Position numbers and translations under genes: made by a program
In this document: positions 47 through 6,456 of the stretch, in pieces
How the letters are laid out: the number at the start of each line of letters is the position of its first letter
How positions within the stretch are numbered: the first letter of the stretch is position 1
Origin: a virus
Lineage: Duplodnaviria; Heunggongvirae; Uroviricota; Caudoviricetes
Strand: one strand, 5' to 3'
Length of the DNA: 6,456 bases
IMG/VR virus record: IMGVR_UViG_2529292728_000022
The notes under the pieces: generated by a model
The model's database searches: none
What the model saw: the letters and a program-made list of their open reading frames with translations, nothing else
Told to the model about the DNA's origin: nothing

Positions 47-3000
47 ATGGCGACGTTACGTGAACTGATTATCAAAATTTCGGCAAATTCACAGTCATTC
101 CAGTCGGAGATCCAGCGGGCGTCCCGTATGGGCAGTGAATATTACCGGACCCTGCAGAATGGCGGACGTCAGGCTGCTGCGGCAGCCAGGGAGCAGCGAC
201 GTGCCCTGGCAGAACTGAACAGCCAGTTGACGGAAATCCGCGCTTCGGCTGTCGGAATGACCGGTGCGTTTGCCGGTGCCTTTGCCACCGGACACCTGAT
301 TTCTCTGGCGGATGAGTGGAGTTCCGTGAATGCCCGTCTGAAACAGGCATCACAGTCATCCGATGAATTTTCGTCATCACAGAAAGTGCTGATGGATATC
401 AGTCAGCGGACAGGCACGGCATTTTCGGATAATGCGGCCCTGTTTGCCCGTTCGGCTGCCTCGATGCGTGAATATGGTTACAGTGCTGATGATGTGCTGA
501 AGGTGACGGAGGCCATTTCCACGGGGCTGAAAATCTCCGGTGCCAGTACGGCTGAGGCGGGTTCGGTGATCACCCAGTTCAGCCAGGCGCTGGCACAGGG
601 TGTGTTGCGCGGTGAGGAATTTAATTCGGTCAATGAAAGTGGTGACCGGATCATTCGTGCACTGGCTGCAGGCATGGGCGTGGCCCGTAAAGATCTGAAG
701 GCGATGGCGGACGACGGCAAACTGACGGCGGATAAAGTCGTGCCCGCGTTAATCAGCCAGCTGGGGACATTGCGTGATGAATATGCCGCCATGCCAGAAA
801 CGGTCTCTGACGGGATCACAAAGGTGGAAAACGCCTTTATGGCCTGGGTGGGTGGTGCGAATGAGGCCAGCGGGGTGACAAAAACGCTCTCCGGCGTGCT
901 GAACGGTGTTGCCGGACAGATTGATAATGTGGCAACAGCCGTGGGGGCACTGGTTGCCGTCGGGGTTGCCCGGTACTTTGGCAATATGGCCTCCGGAGCG
1001 ATGTCTGCCACGGCAGGACTTGTGACGGCTGCACGTAATGAAGTTGCACTGGCGGAAGCACAGTTCAGGGGAACGCAGATTGCCACGGCGCGGGCAAGAG
1101 CAGCCGTGTACCGTGCTCAGCAGGCCGTGGCGGCAGCCCGCGGGACGGAGATGCAGATTGCAGCAGAGGCCCGTCTGGCGGCCACACAGGAACGCCTGAA
1201 CAGAAATATTGCTGCCAGAACCGCCGCCCAGAATGCGCTGAACAGTACAACGGCGGTGGGCTCACGTCTGATGAGCGGTGCGCTGGGACTGGTTGGAGGC
1301 GTACCCGGACTGGTGATGCTGGGAGCTGCCGCATGGTACACGCTGTACCAGAATCAGGAACAGGCCAGGGAGTCTGCGCGCCAGTATGCACTGACGATAG
1401 ATGAAATCGCGCATAAAACGCCATCAATGTCTCTGCCTGAAGCCTCAGATAACGAAGGGCGAACACGGGCGGCGCTGACAGAGCAGAACCGGCTGATTGA
1501 TGAGCAGGCCAGCCGGGTGAAATCCCTGCAGGAAAAAATCGCCGGGTATCAGTATGTGCTGGCTAATCCGGGCTGGACGACCGGTAACGGCTTCATGATA
1601 AACCATCTGACCTCGGTGAAGACCGTAACGGAAGGGCTTGCTCAGGCAACAGAGCAGCTTGCCGTTGAGCAGTCCCGTCTGGCACAGATGCAGGAAAAAG
1701 CGCAGTCCATTCAGGATGTGCTTGCCGGGCTGGAAGACCGTCGTGTGGCGTTAATTCGTCAGCAGGCGGCAGAGCAGAATAAGGTGTACCAGTCCATGCT
1801 GGTTATGAACGGTCAGCATACGGAATTCAACCGTCTGCTGGGGCTGGGTAATGAACTGCTTCAGCAGCGGCAGGGACTGGTGAATGTGCCGTTACGGCTG
1901 CCACAGGCCACTCTGGATGATAAACAGCAGAGTGCCCTGACAAAAACAGAGCGTGAGCTGGCCCTGTCCAGACTGAAAGGGGAAGAAAAAGAGCGTGTCC
2001 GGCTGGGGTATGCGGCGGATGACCTCGGTTTTGTGGGTGATCCGTATCAGGAGGCGAGACAACGTTATATCAGTAATGCCCTGGAAGCCTGGCGCAATAA
2101 CGAGGCGAATAAACCCAAATCCCGGGGTGGAAAATCAGAGACGGAAAAAGCGGAAGACAGTTTTTCCCGGCTGCTGAAGCAGCAGAAAGAGCAACTGGCA
2201 CTGGCCGGTCAGAACACGGAGCTGGCGAAGCTGAAGTACCAGACAGCGCTGGGTGAACTGAAAACCCTGTCGGAGATACAGAAGCAGGAGCTGCTGCGTA
2301 ACGCGGCCCTGATTGACCAGCAAAAAATCCGGGAACAGTTGCGATCCCGGGAAGAGACCCTGAAGAATGATAATGTGGCTGCGCGTGCATCAAATGAAGC
2401 CGAACTGCTGGGGTACGGGCAGGGAGAACGAGCCAGGGAACGCATGCGGGAGTTGCAGCAGATCCGCGACAGCTTCCGCCAGAAGGATGCGGACCTTCAG
2501 TCTCAGTATCAGACCGGGGATATCAGTGAGGATTTTTACAGACAGGCGCTGGCGCAGAATGCACAGTATCTGAGTGAACGTCTGAAAGAGCAGGAAGCCT
2601 TTTATGCCGAATCGGATGTGCAGCGTGCGGACTGGCAGAAAGGGCTGCAGGAGGGATTCAGTAACTGGGTGGATAATGCGTCCGATTACGCCTCACAGGC
2701 AGCACAGCTTGCGACGGAGGGTATCTCAGGGATGGTGAATAACATCACGGAGATGCTGAACGGAAATAAAGTGGAATGGCGCAGCTGGGCCTCATCAGTG
2801 CTGCAGGAAATATCAAAAGTTCTTATGAATGCCGCGATTGTCAACGGAATTAAGACGGCGGCAAACGGTATGTCCGGTGCGGGAGGATTTCTCGGCAGCA
2901 TTGGTGACTGGCTGGGCGGGGCGGTGGCCAATGCAAAAGGCGGCGTGTATACCTCGGCAAACCTGAGTGCGTACAGCAACAGTATTGTGGATACGCCCAC

Positions 3001-3289
3001 GTACTTTGCCTTTGCAAAAGGGGCCGGGCTGATGGGGGAGGCCGGACCTGAAGCCATTATGCCTCTGACGCGGGCGGCGGATGGCTCGCTGGGTGTGCGA
3101 GCGGTGGGCAGTATGAACGGTAGTGCGGGTCTGGTGTATTCCCCGGTCTACCATATCGCCATTCAGAATGACGGGACTAATGGCCAGATAGGGCCGGAAG
3201 CTGCGGGCACCCTTGTGCAGCTGATTGACCAGCGGGTGCAGGCGGTGATGCTGTCCATGCGACGTGACGGAGGAATGCTGAGTGGCTGA
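47..3289 (+). CDS. H: Tail length tape measure protein (lambda gpH functional equivalent), 1080 aa
   Basis: Longest ORF, directly upstream of M-L-K-I-J homologs (the lambda position of H). ATG at 47 with GGAG SD. Ala/Gln/Arg/Glu-rich low-complexity helical sequence typical of tape measures, with hydrophobic Gly/Ala-rich segments (e.g. ...GALVAVGVARYF..., ...SGALGLVGGVPGLVMLGAAAWY...). The C-terminal region (...NDGTNGQIGPEAAGT...MRRDGGMLSG) matches my recollection of the lambda gpH C-terminus. The N-terminal two thirds do not look lambda-like to me. Confidence 0.88.
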   Translation: MATLRELIIKISANSQSFQSEIQRASRMGSEYYRTLQNGGRQAAAAAREQRRALAELNSQLTEIRASAVGMTGAFAGAFATGHLISLADEWSSVNARLKQASQSSDEFSSSQKVLMDISQRTGTAFSDNAALFARSAASMREYGYSADDVLKVTEAISTGLKISGASTAEAGSVITQFSQALAQGVLRGEEFNSVNESGDRIIRALAAGMGVARKDLKAMADDGKLTADKVVPALISQLGTLRDEYAAMPETVSDGITKVENAFMAWVGGANEASGVTKTLSGVLNGVAGQIDNVATAVGALVAVGVARYFGNMASGAMSATAGLVTAARNEVALAEAQFRGTQIATARARAAVYRAQQAVAAARGTEMQIAAEARLAATQERLNRNIAARTAAQNALNSTTAVGSRLMSGALGLVGGVPGLVMLGAAAWYTLYQNQEQARESARQYALTIDEIAHKTPSMSLPEASDNEGRTRAALTEQNRLIDEQASRVKSLQEKIAGYQYVLANPGWTTGNGFMINHLTSVKTVTEGLAQATEQLAVEQSRLAQMQEKAQSIQDVLAGLEDRRVALIRQQAAEQNKVYQSMLVMNGQHTEFNRLLGLGNELLQQRQGLVNVPLRLPQATLDDKQQSALTKTERELALSRLKGEEKERVRLGYAADDLGFVGDPYQEARQRYISNALEAWRNNEANKPKSRGGKSETEKAEDSFSRLLKQQKEQLALAGQNTELAKLKYQTALGELKTLSEIQKQELLRNAALIDQQKIREQLRSREETLKNDNVAARASNEAELLGYGQGERARERMRELQQIRDSFRQKDADLQSQYQTGDISEDFYRQALAQNAQYLSERLKEQEAFYAESDVQRADWQKGLQEGFSNWVDNASDYASQAAQLATEGISGMVNNITEMLNGNKVEWRSWASSVLQEISKVLMNAAIVNGIKTAANGMSGAGGFLGSIGDWLGGAVANAKGGVYTSANLSAYSNSIVDTPTYFAFAKGAGLMGEAGPEAIMPLTRAADGSLGVRAVGSMNGSAGLVYSPVYHIAIQNDGTNGQIGPEAAGTLVQLIDQRVQAVMLSMRRDGGMLSG

Positions 3290-3623
3290 GATAAAAACGC
3301 TGCATCTGGTCCCGCGTGAAGGGATGCAGGTGAGTGAGAAGCCGTCGGTGGTGAGGGTGCGGTTTGGTGACGGTTATGAACAGCGCCGCCCCACAGGGCT
3401 GAATCCTCAACTGAAGACGTTTCAGGCGGTGTTCCGGGTGACGGATGAGTCAACCCGGCGCTGGCTGGAAGAGTTTTTATCGTGGCATGGTGGTTACCGT
3501 GCCTTTTTGTGGCGACCGCCGAAACATAACCGGACGGTGAGGGTTGTGTGCCGTGAGTGGAGTGTCACGGATAATGCCCGGTACAGTGATTTCAGTTGCA
3601 CGATAGAGCAGGTGGTGAACTGA
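3282..3623 (+). CDS. M: Minor tail protein M (lambda gpM homolog), 113 aa, GTG start
   Basis: The ORF opens right after an in-frame TGA at 3279-3281. The GTG at 3282 is preceded by GGAGG (3268-3272, spacing 9). The sequence ...KTLHLVPREGMQVSEKPSVVRVRFGDGYEQRRPTGLNP...FLWRPP...EQVVN aligns with recalled lambda gpM (...VRKVRFGDGY...FLWTPP...EQVVN). It overlaps the 3' end of H by 8 nt. Confidence 0.85.
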   Translation: MAEIKTLHLVPREGMQVSEKPSVVRVRFGDGYEQRRPTGLNPQLKTFQAVFRVTDESTRRWLEEFLSWHGGYRAFLWRPPKHNRTVRVVCREWSVTDNARYSDFSCTIEQVVN

Positions 3624-4321
3624 TGCAGGATATTCACGAAGAAAGCCTGAACGAGTCGGTTAAATCAGAGCAGTCACCGCGGGTGGTGCTCTGGGAAATT
3701 GACCTGACGGTGCAGGGTGGTGAGCGGTATTTTTTCTGCAATGAGCTGAATGAAAAAGGGGAGGCGGTTACCTGGCAGGGGCGGCAATATCAGGCATACC
3801 CGATTGACGGCAGTGGCTTTGAGATGAACGGGAAGGGCAGCAGTGCCCGCCCGTCGCTGACGGTGTCGAATCTGTTCGGTCTGGTCACCGGAATGGCGGA
3901 GGACCTGCAGAGCCTGGTGGGGGCCACGGTGGTCCGCCGCCGGGTGTATGCCCGTTTTCTGGATGCGGTGAATTTTGTGGCGGGCAATCCGGAAGCGGAC
4001 CCGGAGCAGGAGCTGAGCGACCGCTGGGTGGTGGAGCAGATGTCAGAGCTGACGGCCATGACAGCCTCGTTTGTGCTGGCAACACCGACGGAGACGGACG
4101 GAGCGCTGTTTCCCGGTCGCATTATGCTGGCGAATACCTGTATGTGGGATTACCGGGGAGATGAATGCGGGTATAACGGTCCTGCGGTGGCGGATGAGTT
4201 CGACAACCCCACCACGGATATCCGTAAGGACAGATGCAGCAAGTGCATGCGCGGGTGTGAGATGCGCGGCATGGTGGCTAATTTTGGCGGTTTCCTTTCC
4301 ATTAATAAACTTTCGCAGTAA
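3623..4321 (+). CDS. L: Minor tail / tail tip protein L (lambda gpL homolog), 232 aa
   Basis: ATG at 3623 overlaps the M stop as TGATG and is preceded by AGGTGG (3610-3615). The N-terminus MQDIHEESLNE...VVLWEIDLT...ERYFFCNE matches recalled lambda gpL; the C-terminus has the clustered cysteines (C..C..CxxC..C) and ends GGFLSINKLSQ. The TTG at 3596 offered by the ORF track is rejected as the start. Confidence 0.88.
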   Translation: MQDIHEESLNESVKSEQSPRVVLWEIDLTVQGGERYFFCNELNEKGEAVTWQGRQYQAYPIDGSGFEMNGKGSSARPSLTVSNLFGLVTGMAEDLQSLVGATVVRRRVYARFLDAVNFVAGNPEADPEQELSDRWVVEQMSELTAMTASFVLATPTETDGALFPGRIMLANTCMWDYRGDECGYNGPAVADEFDNPTTDIRKDRCSKCMRGCEMRGMVANFGGFLSINKLSQ

Positions 4322-4331
4322 ATCCCGGTTT

Positions 4332-5075
4332 ATGACACAGACTGAATCAGCGATTCTGGCGCATGCCCGGCGGTGTGCGCCTGCGGAGTCGTGCGGCTTC
4401 GTGGTGAGAACGCCGGAGGGGGAGCGGTATATCCCTTGTGTGAATATCTCTGCAGAGCCGGAGGCGTATTTTCGTATCGCACCGGAAGACTGGCTGCGGG
4501 CAGAGATGCAGGGGGAGATTGTGGCACTGGTCCACAGTCATCCCGGTGGTCTGCCCTGGCTGAGCGAGGCCGACCGGCGGCTGCAGATAAAAAGTGCACT
4601 GTCCTGGTGGCTGGTCTGCCGGGGGGAAATTCATAAATTCCGCTGTGTGCCACATCTGACAGGACGGCGCTTTGAGCACGGGGTGACGGACTGTTACACG
4701 CTGTTCCGGGATGCATACCATCTGGCGGGAATTGATATGCCGGATTTTGAGCGTGAGGATGACTGGTGGCGCAACGGTCAGAACCTGTACCTGGACAATA
4801 TGGAGGCGACTGGTTTTTACAGGATTTCCCTGCCTTCCGCACAGCCTGGCGATATCCTGCTGTGCTGCTTTGGCGCATCGGTGGCCAATCATGCCGCCAT
4901 ATACTGCGGCAACGGTGAGCTGCTTCACCATCTGCCTGAACAACTGAGTAAACGGGAGAGGTATTCCGAAAAATGGCAACGACGAACGCATTCAGCCTGG
5001 CGTCACCGCCACTGGCACGTATCTGCCTTCACGGGGATTTACAACGATTTGGCCGCCGCCTCAGCCTGTATGTGA
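4332..5075 (+). CDS. K: Tail tip assembly protein K (lambda gpK homolog), JAB/MPN + NlpC/P60 domains, 247 aa
   Basis: ATG at 4332, 10 nt after the L stop. The N-terminus MTQTESAILAHARRCAPAESCGFVV matches recalled lambda gpK. A JAMM motif is directly visible (HSHPGGLPWLSEAD = H-x-H-x7-S-x2-D), as are NlpC/P60-type Cys and His contexts (GVTDCYTLF ... NHAAIYCG). The ORF-track start at 4071 lies inside L in another frame and is rejected. Confidence 0.85.
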   Translation: MTQTESAILAHARRCAPAESCGFVVRTPEGERYIPCVNISAEPEAYFRIAPEDWLRAEMQGEIVALVHSHPGGLPWLSEADRRLQIKSALSWWLVCRGEIHKFRCVPHLTGRRFEHGVTDCYTLFRDAYHLAGIDMPDFEREDDWWRNGQNLYLDNMEATGFYRISLPSAQPGDILLCCFGASVANHAAIYCGNGELLHHLPEQLSKRERYSEKWQRRTHSAWRHRHWHVSAFTGIYNDLAAASACM

Positions 5076-5653
5076 ACACGGCAGCGGAAGCCATCCGTGC
5101 CCTGTCGATGCAGATGCCGGGATTCCGCCGTCAGATGAACGAAGGCTGGTACCAGATACGTATTCGCGGTGAGGACACGGCACCGGAGGCGGTGTACGCC
5201 CGTCTTCACGAACAGCTGGGTGAGGGAACGGTCATCCACATTGTGCCGCGACTGGCCGGGGCCGGAAAGGGTGGACTGCAGATTGTGCTGGGGGCGGCAG
5301 CCATCGTGGGCTCTTTCTTCACTGCCGGGGCATCAATGGCGTTATGGGGTTCAGCCCTGGCAGCCGGTGGTTTTTCTGCCACCACGATGCTGTTTTCACT
5401 GGGGGCCAGCATGATTCTGGGTGGTGTGGCTCAGATGCTGGCCCCGAAGGCTAAAGTACCGGAGTACAAAAGCACGGATAACGGCAGACAGAACACGTAC
5501 TTTTCCTCGCTGGATAACATGATTGCCCAGGGGAACCCGATGCCGGTGCCTTACGGTGAAATGCTGGTTGGCTCCCGGCGAATCTCCCAGGACATCAGTA
5601 CCCGTGATGAAGGCGGTGGCGGAAAGGTCGTGGTTATCGGGCGGCAGGGGTAA
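4973..5653 (+). CDS. I: Tail tip assembly protein I (lambda gpI homolog), 226 aa
   Basis: ATG at 4973, in a different frame from K and overlapping its last 103 nt. The N-terminal segment (...ARICLHGDLQRFGRR...AIRAL...GWYQIRI...VIHIVPRLAGAGKGG) fits the gpI ubiquitin-like region and is followed by a Gly/Ala-rich hydrophobic segment. The end ...QNTYFSSLDNMIAQGNPMPVPYGEMLVGSRRISQDI matches recalled lambda gpI. Stop TAA at 5651-5653. Confidence 0.8.
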   Translation: MATTNAFSLASPPLARICLHGDLQRFGRRLSLYVNTAAEAIRALSMQMPGFRRQMNEGWYQIRIRGEDTAPEAVYARLHEQLGEGTVIHIVPRLAGAGKGGLQIVLGAAAIVGSFFTAGASMALWGSALAAGGFSATTMLFSLGASMILGGVAQMLAPKAKVPEYKSTDNGRQNTYFSSLDNMIAQGNPMPVPYGEMLVGSRRISQDISTRDEGGGGKVVVIGRQG

Positions 5654-5654
5654 A

Positions 5655-5685
5655 AAGAATAAAAAAATCCCGCAGAGTTGCGGGG
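5655..5685 (-). terminator. Rho-independent terminator on the - strand at the left edge of the I-J gap
   Basis: Seen in sequence: on the - strand, stem cccgca(5684-5679) / loop acuc / ugcggg(5674-5669), with a possible extra G-U pair, followed by UUUUUUUAUUCUUUUU (+ strand A-run 5652-5667). On the + strand the hairpin is followed by acagacaaag, so it is not a + strand terminator. The U-tract overlaps the stop codon of I. Confidence 0.5.
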
Positions 5686-5752
5686 ACAGACAAAGATTAA
5701 CGTTAAGGAGTTATTTTTGTTTCTGGTGCTCGGGCAAAAAAAACATTAACGC
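5655..5752 (-). ncRNA. Candidate ~100-nt small RNA (moron-like) transcribed leftward between I and J
   Basis: Inference from a - strand promoter (-35 at 5781-5786, -10 at 5759-5764) with a predicted start near 5752 and the - strand terminator at 5655-5685. No ORF with a plausible RBS in the transcript. Contains a 16S-3'-end-like CUCCUU motif and internal self-complementarity (5' CGUUAA vs UUAACG). Confidence 0.22.
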
Positions 5753-5758
5753 AGAGAA

Positions 5759-5786
5759 ATTATTAGCACCACAGTCAGTTTGTGAA
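5759..5786 (-). promoter_or_regulatory. Candidate sigma70 promoter on the - strand (TTCACA-N16-AATAAT)
   Basis: Seen in sequence: - strand -35 TTCACA (+ coords 5781-5786, 5/6 to TTGACA), 16-nt spacer, -10 AATAAT (+ coords 5759-5764, 5/6 to TATAAT), with an AT-rich stretch upstream. A G lies 7 nt downstream of the -10 (about + 5752). Confidence 0.3.
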
Positions 5787-5823
5787 AATGTGAAGATATT
5801 CAGAAGTTTTATTCAATCATGAT

Positions 5824-5854
5824 ACAGGCATCCTCCGGGATGCCTGTTGTTTTT
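5824..5854 (+). terminator. Rho-independent terminator on the + strand, 35 nt upstream of the J start
   Basis: Seen in sequence: perfect 10-bp stem acaggcatcc(5824-5833) / loop tccg / ggatgcctgt(5838-5847), followed by tgttttt (5848-5854). On the - strand the same hairpin is followed by AUCAUGAUUGAAU, which is not U-rich, so it is + strand specific. Confidence 0.55.
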
Positions 5855-5888
5855 GTGCGTAACAGTTATCACAGTAAAGGGTGAGACA

Positions 5889-6456
5889 ATGGGCAAAGGT
5901 GGCGGCAAGGCGCACACGCCGGTAGAGGCAAAGGACAATCTTAAGTCCACGCAGATGATGAGCGTGATTGATGCCATTGGTGAAGGGCCGATTGAAGGTC
6001 CGGTGAAGGGGCTGCAGAGTATCCTGGTGAACAAAACCCCGCTGACGGACACGGACGGTAATCCTGTGATACATGGTGTGACAGCGGTCTGGCGCGCCGG
6101 GGAGCAGGAGCAGACACCACCTGAAGGCTTTGAGTCCTCCGGGGCGGAAACCGCACTGGGCGTGGAAGTGACGAAGGCAAAGCCGGTGACGCGCACCATT
6201 ACGTCCGCGAACATTGACCGCCTGCGGGTCACCTTCGGGGTGCAGTCACTGTTGGAGACCACCTCAAAGGGCGACCGTAATCCCTCTTCTGTCCGACTGC
6301 TGATTCAGTTACAGCGTAACGGTAACTGGGTGACGGAAAAGGATGTCACCATTAACGGCAAGACCACCTCGCAGTTTCTGGCGTCGGTGATTCTGGATAA
6401 TCTGCCTCCCCGTCCTTTTAACATCCGGATGGTCCGGGAGACAGCGGACAGCACCT
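5889..6456 (+). CDS. J: Host specificity / central tail fibre protein J (lambda gpJ homolog), N-terminal ~189 aa only; continues beyond the window
   Basis: ATG at 5889 preceded by AAAGGGTGAG. The translation MGKGGGKAHTPVEAKDNLKSTQMMSVIDAIGEGPIEGPV...AGEQEQTPPEGFESSG...TITSANIDRL...TSKGDRNP...LPPRPFNIRM is open to the window end and closely matches the recalled lambda gpJ N-terminus. It is absent from the ORF track because it has no stop in the window. Confidence 0.9.
   Translation, partial: MGKGGGKAHTPVEAKDNLKSTQMMSVIDAIGEGPIEGPVKGLQSILVNKTPLTDTDGNPVIHGVTAVWRAGEQEQTPPEGFESSGAETALGVEVTKAKPVTRTITSANIDRLRVTFGVQSLLETTSKGDRNPSSVRLLIQLQRNGNWVTEKDVTINGKTTSQFLASVILDNLPPRPFNIRMVRETADST

Follow-up and report, generated by a model that had tools for sequence, protein, structure and literature searches.

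What is the AT-rich DNA that separates tail genes I and J in an otherwise tightly packed phage operon? We asked this of a stretch of 6,456 nucleotides from a Caudoviricetes virus (IMG/VR record IMGVR_UViG_2529292728_000022, hereafter the window), which holds a lambda-type tail operon whose gene ends we verified by translation. Gene I stops at position 5653 and gene J starts at 5889, leaving an unstranded I-J spacer of 235 bp (5654-5888), whereas all other junctions of the operon are overlaps or gaps of at most 10 nt. A preliminary description of this DNA had proposed that the spacer is a moron, i.e., an autonomous transcription unit placed between structural genes. Our analysis agrees and gives the moron an identity: its left-hand ~170 bp are very probably the gene of an Hfq-dependent, trans-acting small RNA (sRNA) expressed from the prophage, an allele of the family that includes PasB and EcOnc22/23/24. 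The predicted product of the cargo is an antisense small RNA and not a protein, and the insertion is not peculiar to this phage.

Composition of the spacer and its short counterpart in lambda

The spacer has a GC content of 38.3% (90 of 235 positions, exactly the number counted earlier by hand), against 57.7% in the coding DNA at 47-5653 and 58.2% in the part of J that lies in the window. The flanking genes are thus well above 50% GC, as had been judged by eye. Sliding windows show a compositional break at the spacer: the lowest 236-nt window elsewhere has 50.4% GC, and the spacer lies about 5.9 standard deviations under the remainder (z = -5.9). The records we inspected, including the identical locus and E2348/69, have no annotation in the I-J gap.

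The preliminary description had also placed a terminator hairpin at each edge of the spacer and took the two as marks of the inserted unit. Two hairpins with T-runs are indeed present, but they terminate opposite strands and hence do not delimit one unit. The left-hand hairpin is on the minus strand and is described below. The right-hand one is a terminator-like hairpin of the plus strand (5824-5856, consensus scan), with 10 bp and a loop of 4 nt (5824-5847) followed by TGTTTTTGTG, and it shows a compensatory T:A to C:G change among spacer variants. The consensus scan found no plus-strand promoter for a transcript ending at this hairpin. To our knowledge, no function has been described for a terminator inside a Q-antiterminated late operon upstream of J.

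In lambda, I and J are nearly adjacent, as the preliminary description stated: the gap is 60 bp long and holds a plus-strand hairpin (AACCGCC-TGCG-GGCGGTT), a T-rich tail and the ribosome-binding site of J (locus L003, 746-805). Relatives from Enterobacter, Rahnella and Pantoea, whose gene I is 34-46% identical, have I-J gaps of 42-54 bp in which a hairpin and a T-run abut the J start (L089-L097). Unlike the window, none of these gaps has an antisense promoter, an sRNA body or the upstream box described below. Because they consist of such a hairpin, the right-hand part of our spacer (5824-5888, hairpin and J leader) is the counterpart of the short lambda-type spacer. The leader itself (5857-5888, plus strand, 32 nt) contains a ribosome-binding site, read from the sequence as AAAGGGTGAG at 5876-5885. 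In the J leaders of loci L082 and L100, a 7-nt unit before this site (CAGACAT or TCAGACA) varies from two to four copies between otherwise similar spacers.

The claim that the spacer is extra DNA relative to lambda therefore stands for its larger part and falls for the right-hand ~65 bp. By this comparison, the extra DNA amounts to ~170 bp, from 5654 to ~5823, and comprises the predicted sRNA gene, its promoter and an upstream box, and the right-hand hairpin does not belong to the moron. This also bears on the simplest account of the spacer, that it is a plain 5' leader of J or a small-peptide gene with no separate transcription unit, which we consider extremely improbable. The preliminary description had itself named the conserved 5' untranslated region (5'UTR) of J as a way in which its reading could fail. 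The right-hand ~65 bp are indeed common to lambda-like operons, but such operons need just 42-60 bp, and antisense transcripts are documented for spacers homologous to this one. As to peptides, no convincing open reading frame (ORF) had been noted earlier, and we found none longer than 23 aa on the plus strand of the spacer. Small ORFs of 23 aa (5678-5749) and 21 aa (5819-5884) do exist there. We rejected both as genes: they lack ribosome-binding sites, their frame and length shift between alleles, and the second just overlies the conserved plus-strand hairpin, where the compensatory change is of the kind expected of RNA.

A predicted minus-strand gene of the PasB and EcOnc22/23/24 family

The left-hand part of the spacer carries a predicted sRNA gene on the minus strand (5661-5752). 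The consensus scan identified a sigma-70-like promoter with a -35 element TTCACA (5781-5786), a 16-nt spacer and a -10 element AATAAT (5759-5764), all on the minus strand and matching the consensus at 10 of 12 positions. With the -10 element as reference, the predicted RNA starts at 5752 and is 92 nt long. The intrinsic terminator (5661-5684, minus strand) is made of a stem CCCGCA/UGCGGG (5684-5669; 6 bp, five of them GC pairs) with a 4-nt loop, an A and a U7 tract (5667-5661), and ends 8 nt from the stop codon of I. Promoter and terminator have the correct order and spacing, in a region where the scan returned two promoter-like sites (0.5 expected) and four terminator-like sites (0.9 expected). 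The 92-nt RNA is AU-rich, and its fold (-21 kcal/mol, z = -2.96) has a loosely paired domain at the 5' end and the terminator hairpin at the other, with a U-rich single-stranded stretch between them. By the definition of Juhala, Hendrix et al. 2000 (taken from PMC4104026), the locus thus shows several features of a moron, i.e., extra DNA between adjacent genes, its own predicted promoter and terminator, here on the opposite strand, and a deviant composition (38.3% against 57.7% GC).

The gene is homologous to that of PasB, one of five Hfq-dependent prophage sRNAs identified by RIL-seq, a method that ligates and sequences interacting RNAs, and encoded in prophage PP6 of enteropathogenic Escherichia coli (EPEC) O127:H6 E2348/69 (Pearl Mizrahi et al. 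2021, PMC8550237; see also Zhu, Shabalina and Storz 2026, bioRxiv 10.64898/2026.05.13.724894). PasB is an RNA of 83 nt confirmed by Northern blot and located at NC_011601.1 1466343-1466261 on the minus strand (PMC8550237). In PP6, gene I ends at 1466255 and gene J starts at 1466496, which gives a 240-bp gap (L002, 2757-2996). Since the coordinates of PasB fall between the two, it is antisense within the I-J gap, with its 3' end 6 nt from the I stop. PasB levels fall in Δhfq, with log2 values of -6.8 and -2.4, and it has a U7 tract, where the RIL-seq criterion for sRNAs is a U tract of at least four. It takes part in 37 RIL-seq interactions, and in nearly all of the chimeras it is the RNA in second place; its partners lie in coding sequences and 5'UTRs of core and accessory genes.

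The window matches PasB in its I-J slot, antisense orientation, upstream box, terminator stem with U7 and plus-strand hairpin before J. The two spacers align over their full length with 89% column identity. Promoter geometry is the same in the aligned columns: TTCACA, 16 nt and TATAAT in PP6 (11/12), against TTCACA, 16 nt and AATAAT in the window (10/12). PasB matched the window by blastn at 5724-5661 on the minus strand (E=3e-12), with 64 of its 83 positions identical. The position homologous to its annotated 5' end is ~5736, which would give an RNA of 76-92 nt in the window. The window allele has a terminator loop shorter by 8-9 nt, a 4-nt deletion in the body and an insertion of 6-7 nt. In the alignment, the longest exact words shared with PasB are of ~16 nt, and the 28-nt-word BLAST of the 2026 preprint would probably not have counted this allele. 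The family is far more diverse than a search with the 83-nt BLAST query shows.

The sRNAs EcOnc22/23/24 were detected as peaks of Hfq crosslinking and analysis of cDNA (CRAC) in prophages Sp15 (Stx1), Sp14 and Sp11 of E. coli O157:H7 Sakai, with a Northern band of ~85 nt that is destabilised in Δhfq, in a published table that gives no genomic context (Tree et al. 2014, PMC4104026). In the I-J spacer of Sp15 (L084, 1192-1431), it is the operon-sense strand that the EcOnc22/23/24 probe matches, and the RNA is therefore antisense. It should be noted that we made this placement by probe sequence, as the CRAC peak coordinates refer to an older version of the Sakai genome. The Sp15 RNA matched the window by blastn with E=1e-10, with 72 of 92 positions identical, although its allele has a different body and a poorer -35 element than the window. 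These alignments indicate that EcOnc22/23/24 and PasB are alleles of one gene of the I-J junction, and that the window holds a new, uncatalogued allele of this family, described in 2014, 2021 and 2026. The link between PasB and EcOnc22-24 is found neither in table S6 of the 2021 study, which has no note of a homologue in enterohaemorrhagic E. coli (EHEC), nor in the 2026 preprint, which mentions neither EcOnc, nor a promoter, nor the antisense orientation. Its recognition joins two separate literatures.

Another family invites comparison. The anti-sRNAs AgvB and AsxR (EcOnc01, EcOnc02; Rfam RF02702, RF02703; PMC4104026) are likewise bound by Hfq, encoded by prophages in a slot for morons and transcribed towards the late transcripts. 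They, too, exist as allelic series in which the part near the terminator is conserved and the targeting part varies. They differ in being located downstream of Q/PR' rather than in the tail operon, in their length (51-60 nt) and in showing no sequence similarity with the I-J family, and neither Rfam model matches the window at E<=1. Sponge activity against host sRNAs may be a further difference from the I-J family. We rejected EcOnc54 of Sakai Sp6 as a further I-J sRNA, as it sits in a different moron between L and K. In that locus (L103, 1576300-1578300), the L-K moron consists of a minus-strand transcriptional regulator and an antirepressor gene, and the Hfq-CRAC peak of EcOnc54 falls there.

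A scan of the window with Rfam at E up to 1 returned only two matches, which we attribute to chance: one to Hrs1, on the wrong strand and below threshold (22 bits, where the gathering score is 56), and one within H to a snoRNA. In Rfam 15 the type loci of PP6 and Sp15 match nothing either, as no family model exists, and the missing match in the window is therefore uninformative.

By analogy with its homologues, the sRNA would be transcribed from the repressed prophage off its own sigma-70 promoter, antisense to the late tail operon. Homologues of the PasB and EcOnc22-24 type were detected in lysogens grown without induction, which suggests that the moron may likewise be expressed from a repressed prophage. 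The preliminary description had reckoned with a spacer that yields no transcript in either orientation. For homologous spacers this is contradicted by published data from lysogens (Northern, CRAC and RIL-seq). Hfq would then stabilise the RNA through the U-tail and a conserved core, GUUAAUCUU (5693-5701, minus strand), in the single-stranded U-rich stretch before the terminator. The columns of GUUAAUCUU are near-invariant in 31 spacer variants and 19 RNAs, and we propose it as the Hfq-binding module. The single-stranded variable body of the RNA would pair in trans with mRNAs of host and prophage origin, and the seed within it is probably the anti-Shine-Dalgarno-like motif CUCCUU (5705-5710, minus strand). 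This candidate seed is unpaired in the minimum free energy fold of the window RNA, and a pyrimidine motif (CUCCUU, CUCCAU, CUCCCU, UUCCUU or UCUCU) is equally placed in all alleles. RNAalifold on 19 alleles retained the terminator as sole shared structure and left the body single-stranded, as this model would predict for a seed-bearing Hfq sRNA. A 5' helix between GUUAAUGU and the region before UAAUCUU was rejected: 83.5% of the cells pair, with one compensatory pair, which is no better than shuffles, and it is also absent from the RNAalifold consensus.

Several points weigh against this reading of the gene. Expression and Hfq dependence are documented at the level of homologues. Identity of the window RNA is only ~77% with PasB and ~78% with the RNA of Sp15, indels occur in both comparisons, and the -10 element agrees with the consensus at 5 of 6 positions. 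Since the annotated 5' end of PasB lies 15-16 nt downstream of the start predicted from the promoter, the real 5' end is uncertain. The terminator stem CCCGCAG/CTGCGGG is invariant in 18 other alleles; since it never varies within the main family, covariation lends the terminator no support. The targets of EcOnc22 were given as unknown in a 2021 review, and Rfam has no curated model for the family.

Some of these points could also be taken to mean that the sRNA gene of the window has decayed into an inert relic that has lost expression or function. Relatives do include promoterless remnants (the sodC variants described below) and one locus with an insertion sequence (IS), and compared with the characterised alleles the copy in the window has lost 8 nt of the terminator loop and has indels in the body. 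Its closest relative is L037, from which it differs mainly by this deletion. The missing loop segment, GCTCCGCA, lies between direct repeats of CCGCA, and its loss looks like a slippage deletion that leaves a tighter stem of 6 bp with a loop of 4 nt. The deletion therefore tightens the hairpin without breaking it; the promoter retains its 10/12 match, the terminator its GC-rich stem and U7, and the upstream box is intact. Moreover, alleles at least 99% identical to that of the window are present in more than 250 genomes. With intact signals and so wide a distribution, a decayed, silent copy is improbable.

An sRNA acting mainly in cis is somewhat less improbable, though still unlikely. It would pair with the I-J part of the late polycistronic mRNA, to which it is fully complementary, or collide with late transcription, and thereby lead to processing between I and J or dampen leaky expression of J in the lysogen, trans targets being incidental. 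The gene is wholly inside, and antisense to, the late operon, and all alleles are at the same junction. The hypervariability of the body (69% identity, see below) fits such a role, as complementarity in cis is automatic. Yet PasB has 37 Hfq-mediated interactions in trans, and the sRNA overlaps neither the ribosome-binding site of J nor any coding sequence. When the sRNA was scanned for duplexes with the remaining mRNA of the window, the initiation region of J among it, no pairing exceeded that of shuffled controls. The two roles may coexist. On balance, we favour the trans-acting sRNA.

Conserved box, variable body and other cargo at the junction

Directly upstream of the -35 element of the sRNA lies a box, AAATGTGAAGATATTCAGAAGT (TGTGA-N6-TCAGA; 5786-5807, no strand assigned), which is the most conserved block of the spacer. 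In the 31 spacer variants, 18 of its 22 columns are invariant and only central spacer positions vary, whereas none of the six columns of the -35 element is invariant. The box persists in spacers that have unrelated cassettes on the left and in others with a replaced right side, and 112 of the 120 IMG/VR matches to the box have a PasB-type terminator within 190 nt to the left. It is likely to be an activator site, and as such offers a testable handle on the regulation of the sRNA. It also has the look of a recombination joint.

The box resembles a CRP site, with three mismatches to AAATGTGA-N6-TCACATTT, a match that 3 of 200 shuffles also reach. Its left half-site is perfect, the right one is TCAGA, and both half-sites are invariant. 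As a textbook CRP site it was rejected for its poor fit, since its centre lies ~44.5 nt upstream of the predicted sRNA start, where the canonical positions in class I or class II promoters are near -41.5 or -61.5. PasB is more abundant in glucose-free overnight lysogeny broth, where Spot 42 is low, than in a virulence-activating medium, where Spot 42 is high. This pattern is compatible with CRP and not specific to it, so that CRP as the factor binding the box may serve for now as a lead.

Members of the family are widespread. Of the 5426 complete E. coli genomes searched, 1842 (more than a third) contain this unannotated sRNA gene, often in multiple copies and often inside Stx prophages. The family members occupy 5480 places, the median being two per genome and the maximum 11. 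Copies at least 99% identical to the window allele were found in 256-277 E. coli chromosomes, and a search of the phage collection matched 147 records, all of them Stx-converting, Escherichia or Enterobacteria phages. The scan of genome contigs beyond Escherichia yielded only 13 loci, and taxonomic breadth is poorly sampled by it. Three loci are on short contigs assigned to Streptomyces flavalbus (L086), Parendozoicomonas haliclonae (L087) and a Clostridiales metagenome-assembled genome (L094), with 94-98% identical I of the E. coli type and PasB-like spacers; they look like contamination of assemblies by E. coli prophages.

To the comparison with related operons, from which the preliminary description hoped for exact insertion boundaries or for different cargo at the same junction, the answer was divided. 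We surveyed 80 IMG/VR loci with I at least 95% identical and a J start that could be anchored. All 80 carry a cassette and none has a short I-J gap; the empty sites that we found all belong to distant lineages, with I no more than 66% identical. The cassette appears fixed in this tail-module lineage, and the exact boundaries of the insertion cannot be read because there is no empty site among close relatives. Different cargo at the same junction, by contrast, was found in several forms (sodC, tandem cassettes, IS).

One such cargo is a gene for a protein. Gaps of 852 bp carry sodC on the minus strand, encoding a Cu,Zn superoxide dismutase (Pfam Sod_Cu, E=4e-32), with its own terminator (L004, 1783-2634; about 20 other IMG/VR loci; L094). 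It uses the same slot and strand as the sRNA in phages with I at least 95% identical, but is protein-coding. The sodC gene replaces the promoter, the box and the plus-strand hairpin, while the 3' part of the sRNA stays downstream of the sodC terminator; we found no promoter-like site for this residual part in the sodC variants. Since sodC occupies the same slot, the I-J junction is a hot spot for cargo. With sRNA, sodC and IS as its occupants, it is a second moron hot spot besides the PR' site.

Other variants rearrange the sRNA gene or its surroundings. Gaps of 343 bp, found in extraintestinal pathogenic E. coli (ExPEC) strains, keep the sRNA and the box and have a different plus-strand terminator region. 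Gaps of 424 bp hold two tandem antisense cassettes with a box after each (L101, 703-1126, from E. coli HY220605; L105, L120, L159, L179), the second cassette having a different body and the terminator CUCCCG/CGGGAG. In L150 (258-646), an IS3-family element (OrfA MTKNTRFSPEVRQ...) lies immediately to the left of the -35 element and box, and the sRNA body is removed. Further cassette types were observed in L110 and L145.

Within the spacer, conservation is strongly uneven. We computed mean pairwise identities over the unique spacers from phages with I at least 95% identical. The flanking genes reach 93% (I, final 300 nt) and 94% (J, initial 300 nt); in the spacer the box region has 94% and the plus-strand hairpin 89%, against 69% in the sRNA body (minimum 48%). 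In these phages, eight body types occur in free combination with four right-hand types. Within the RNA, the conserved elements are a 5' GCGUUA, a U-run, the pyrimidine motif (CUCCUU in the window), GUUAAUCUU and the terminator.

These patterns raise the possibility, which we put forward tentatively, that the I-J junction is a dedicated, hypervariable locus for sRNA cassettes, in which the targeting region, framed by a near-invariant box and a conserved terminator, is exchanged or diversified much faster than the tail genes beside it. Polylysogenic pathogens would then hold up to 11 co-regulated alleles with different seeds, and an added cis effect of the cassette RNAs on the tail operon is conceivable. 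The basis for this idea is the mixing of the eight body types with the four right-hand types, the occurrence of two cassettes in tandem and the existence of three or more other classes of cassette. The cassette-like diversification, together with the invariant box, are in our view the features most worth pursuing.

The tail genes of the window

The genes upstream of the spacer are all on the plus strand. Gene H (47-3289) overlaps M (3282-3623) by 8 nt, M overlaps L (3623-4321) by 1 nt, and K (4332-5075) follows L after a gap of 10 nt, as determined by translation. The tight spacing reported by the preliminary description was thus confirmed: the junctions upstream of I-J are of -8, -1, +10 and -4 nt, and the overlap between K and I is of 103 nt if I starts at 4973. 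Downstream of the spacer, the window ends within the 5' part of the tail tip gene J (5889-6456, plus strand), which starts with ATG at 5889 and encodes MGKGGGKAHTP....

The start of the tail assembly gene I differs from that in database annotations. RefSeq relatives annotate it from a GTG at 5072, giving a protein of 193 aa without the conserved N-terminus. The ORF from the ATG at 4973 (4973-5653, plus strand, 226 aa) is 66% identical to lambda I in an alignment that covers both from end to end. Judging from this alignment, the true start is most likely the ATG at 4973, with I overlapping K by 103 nt as in lambda.

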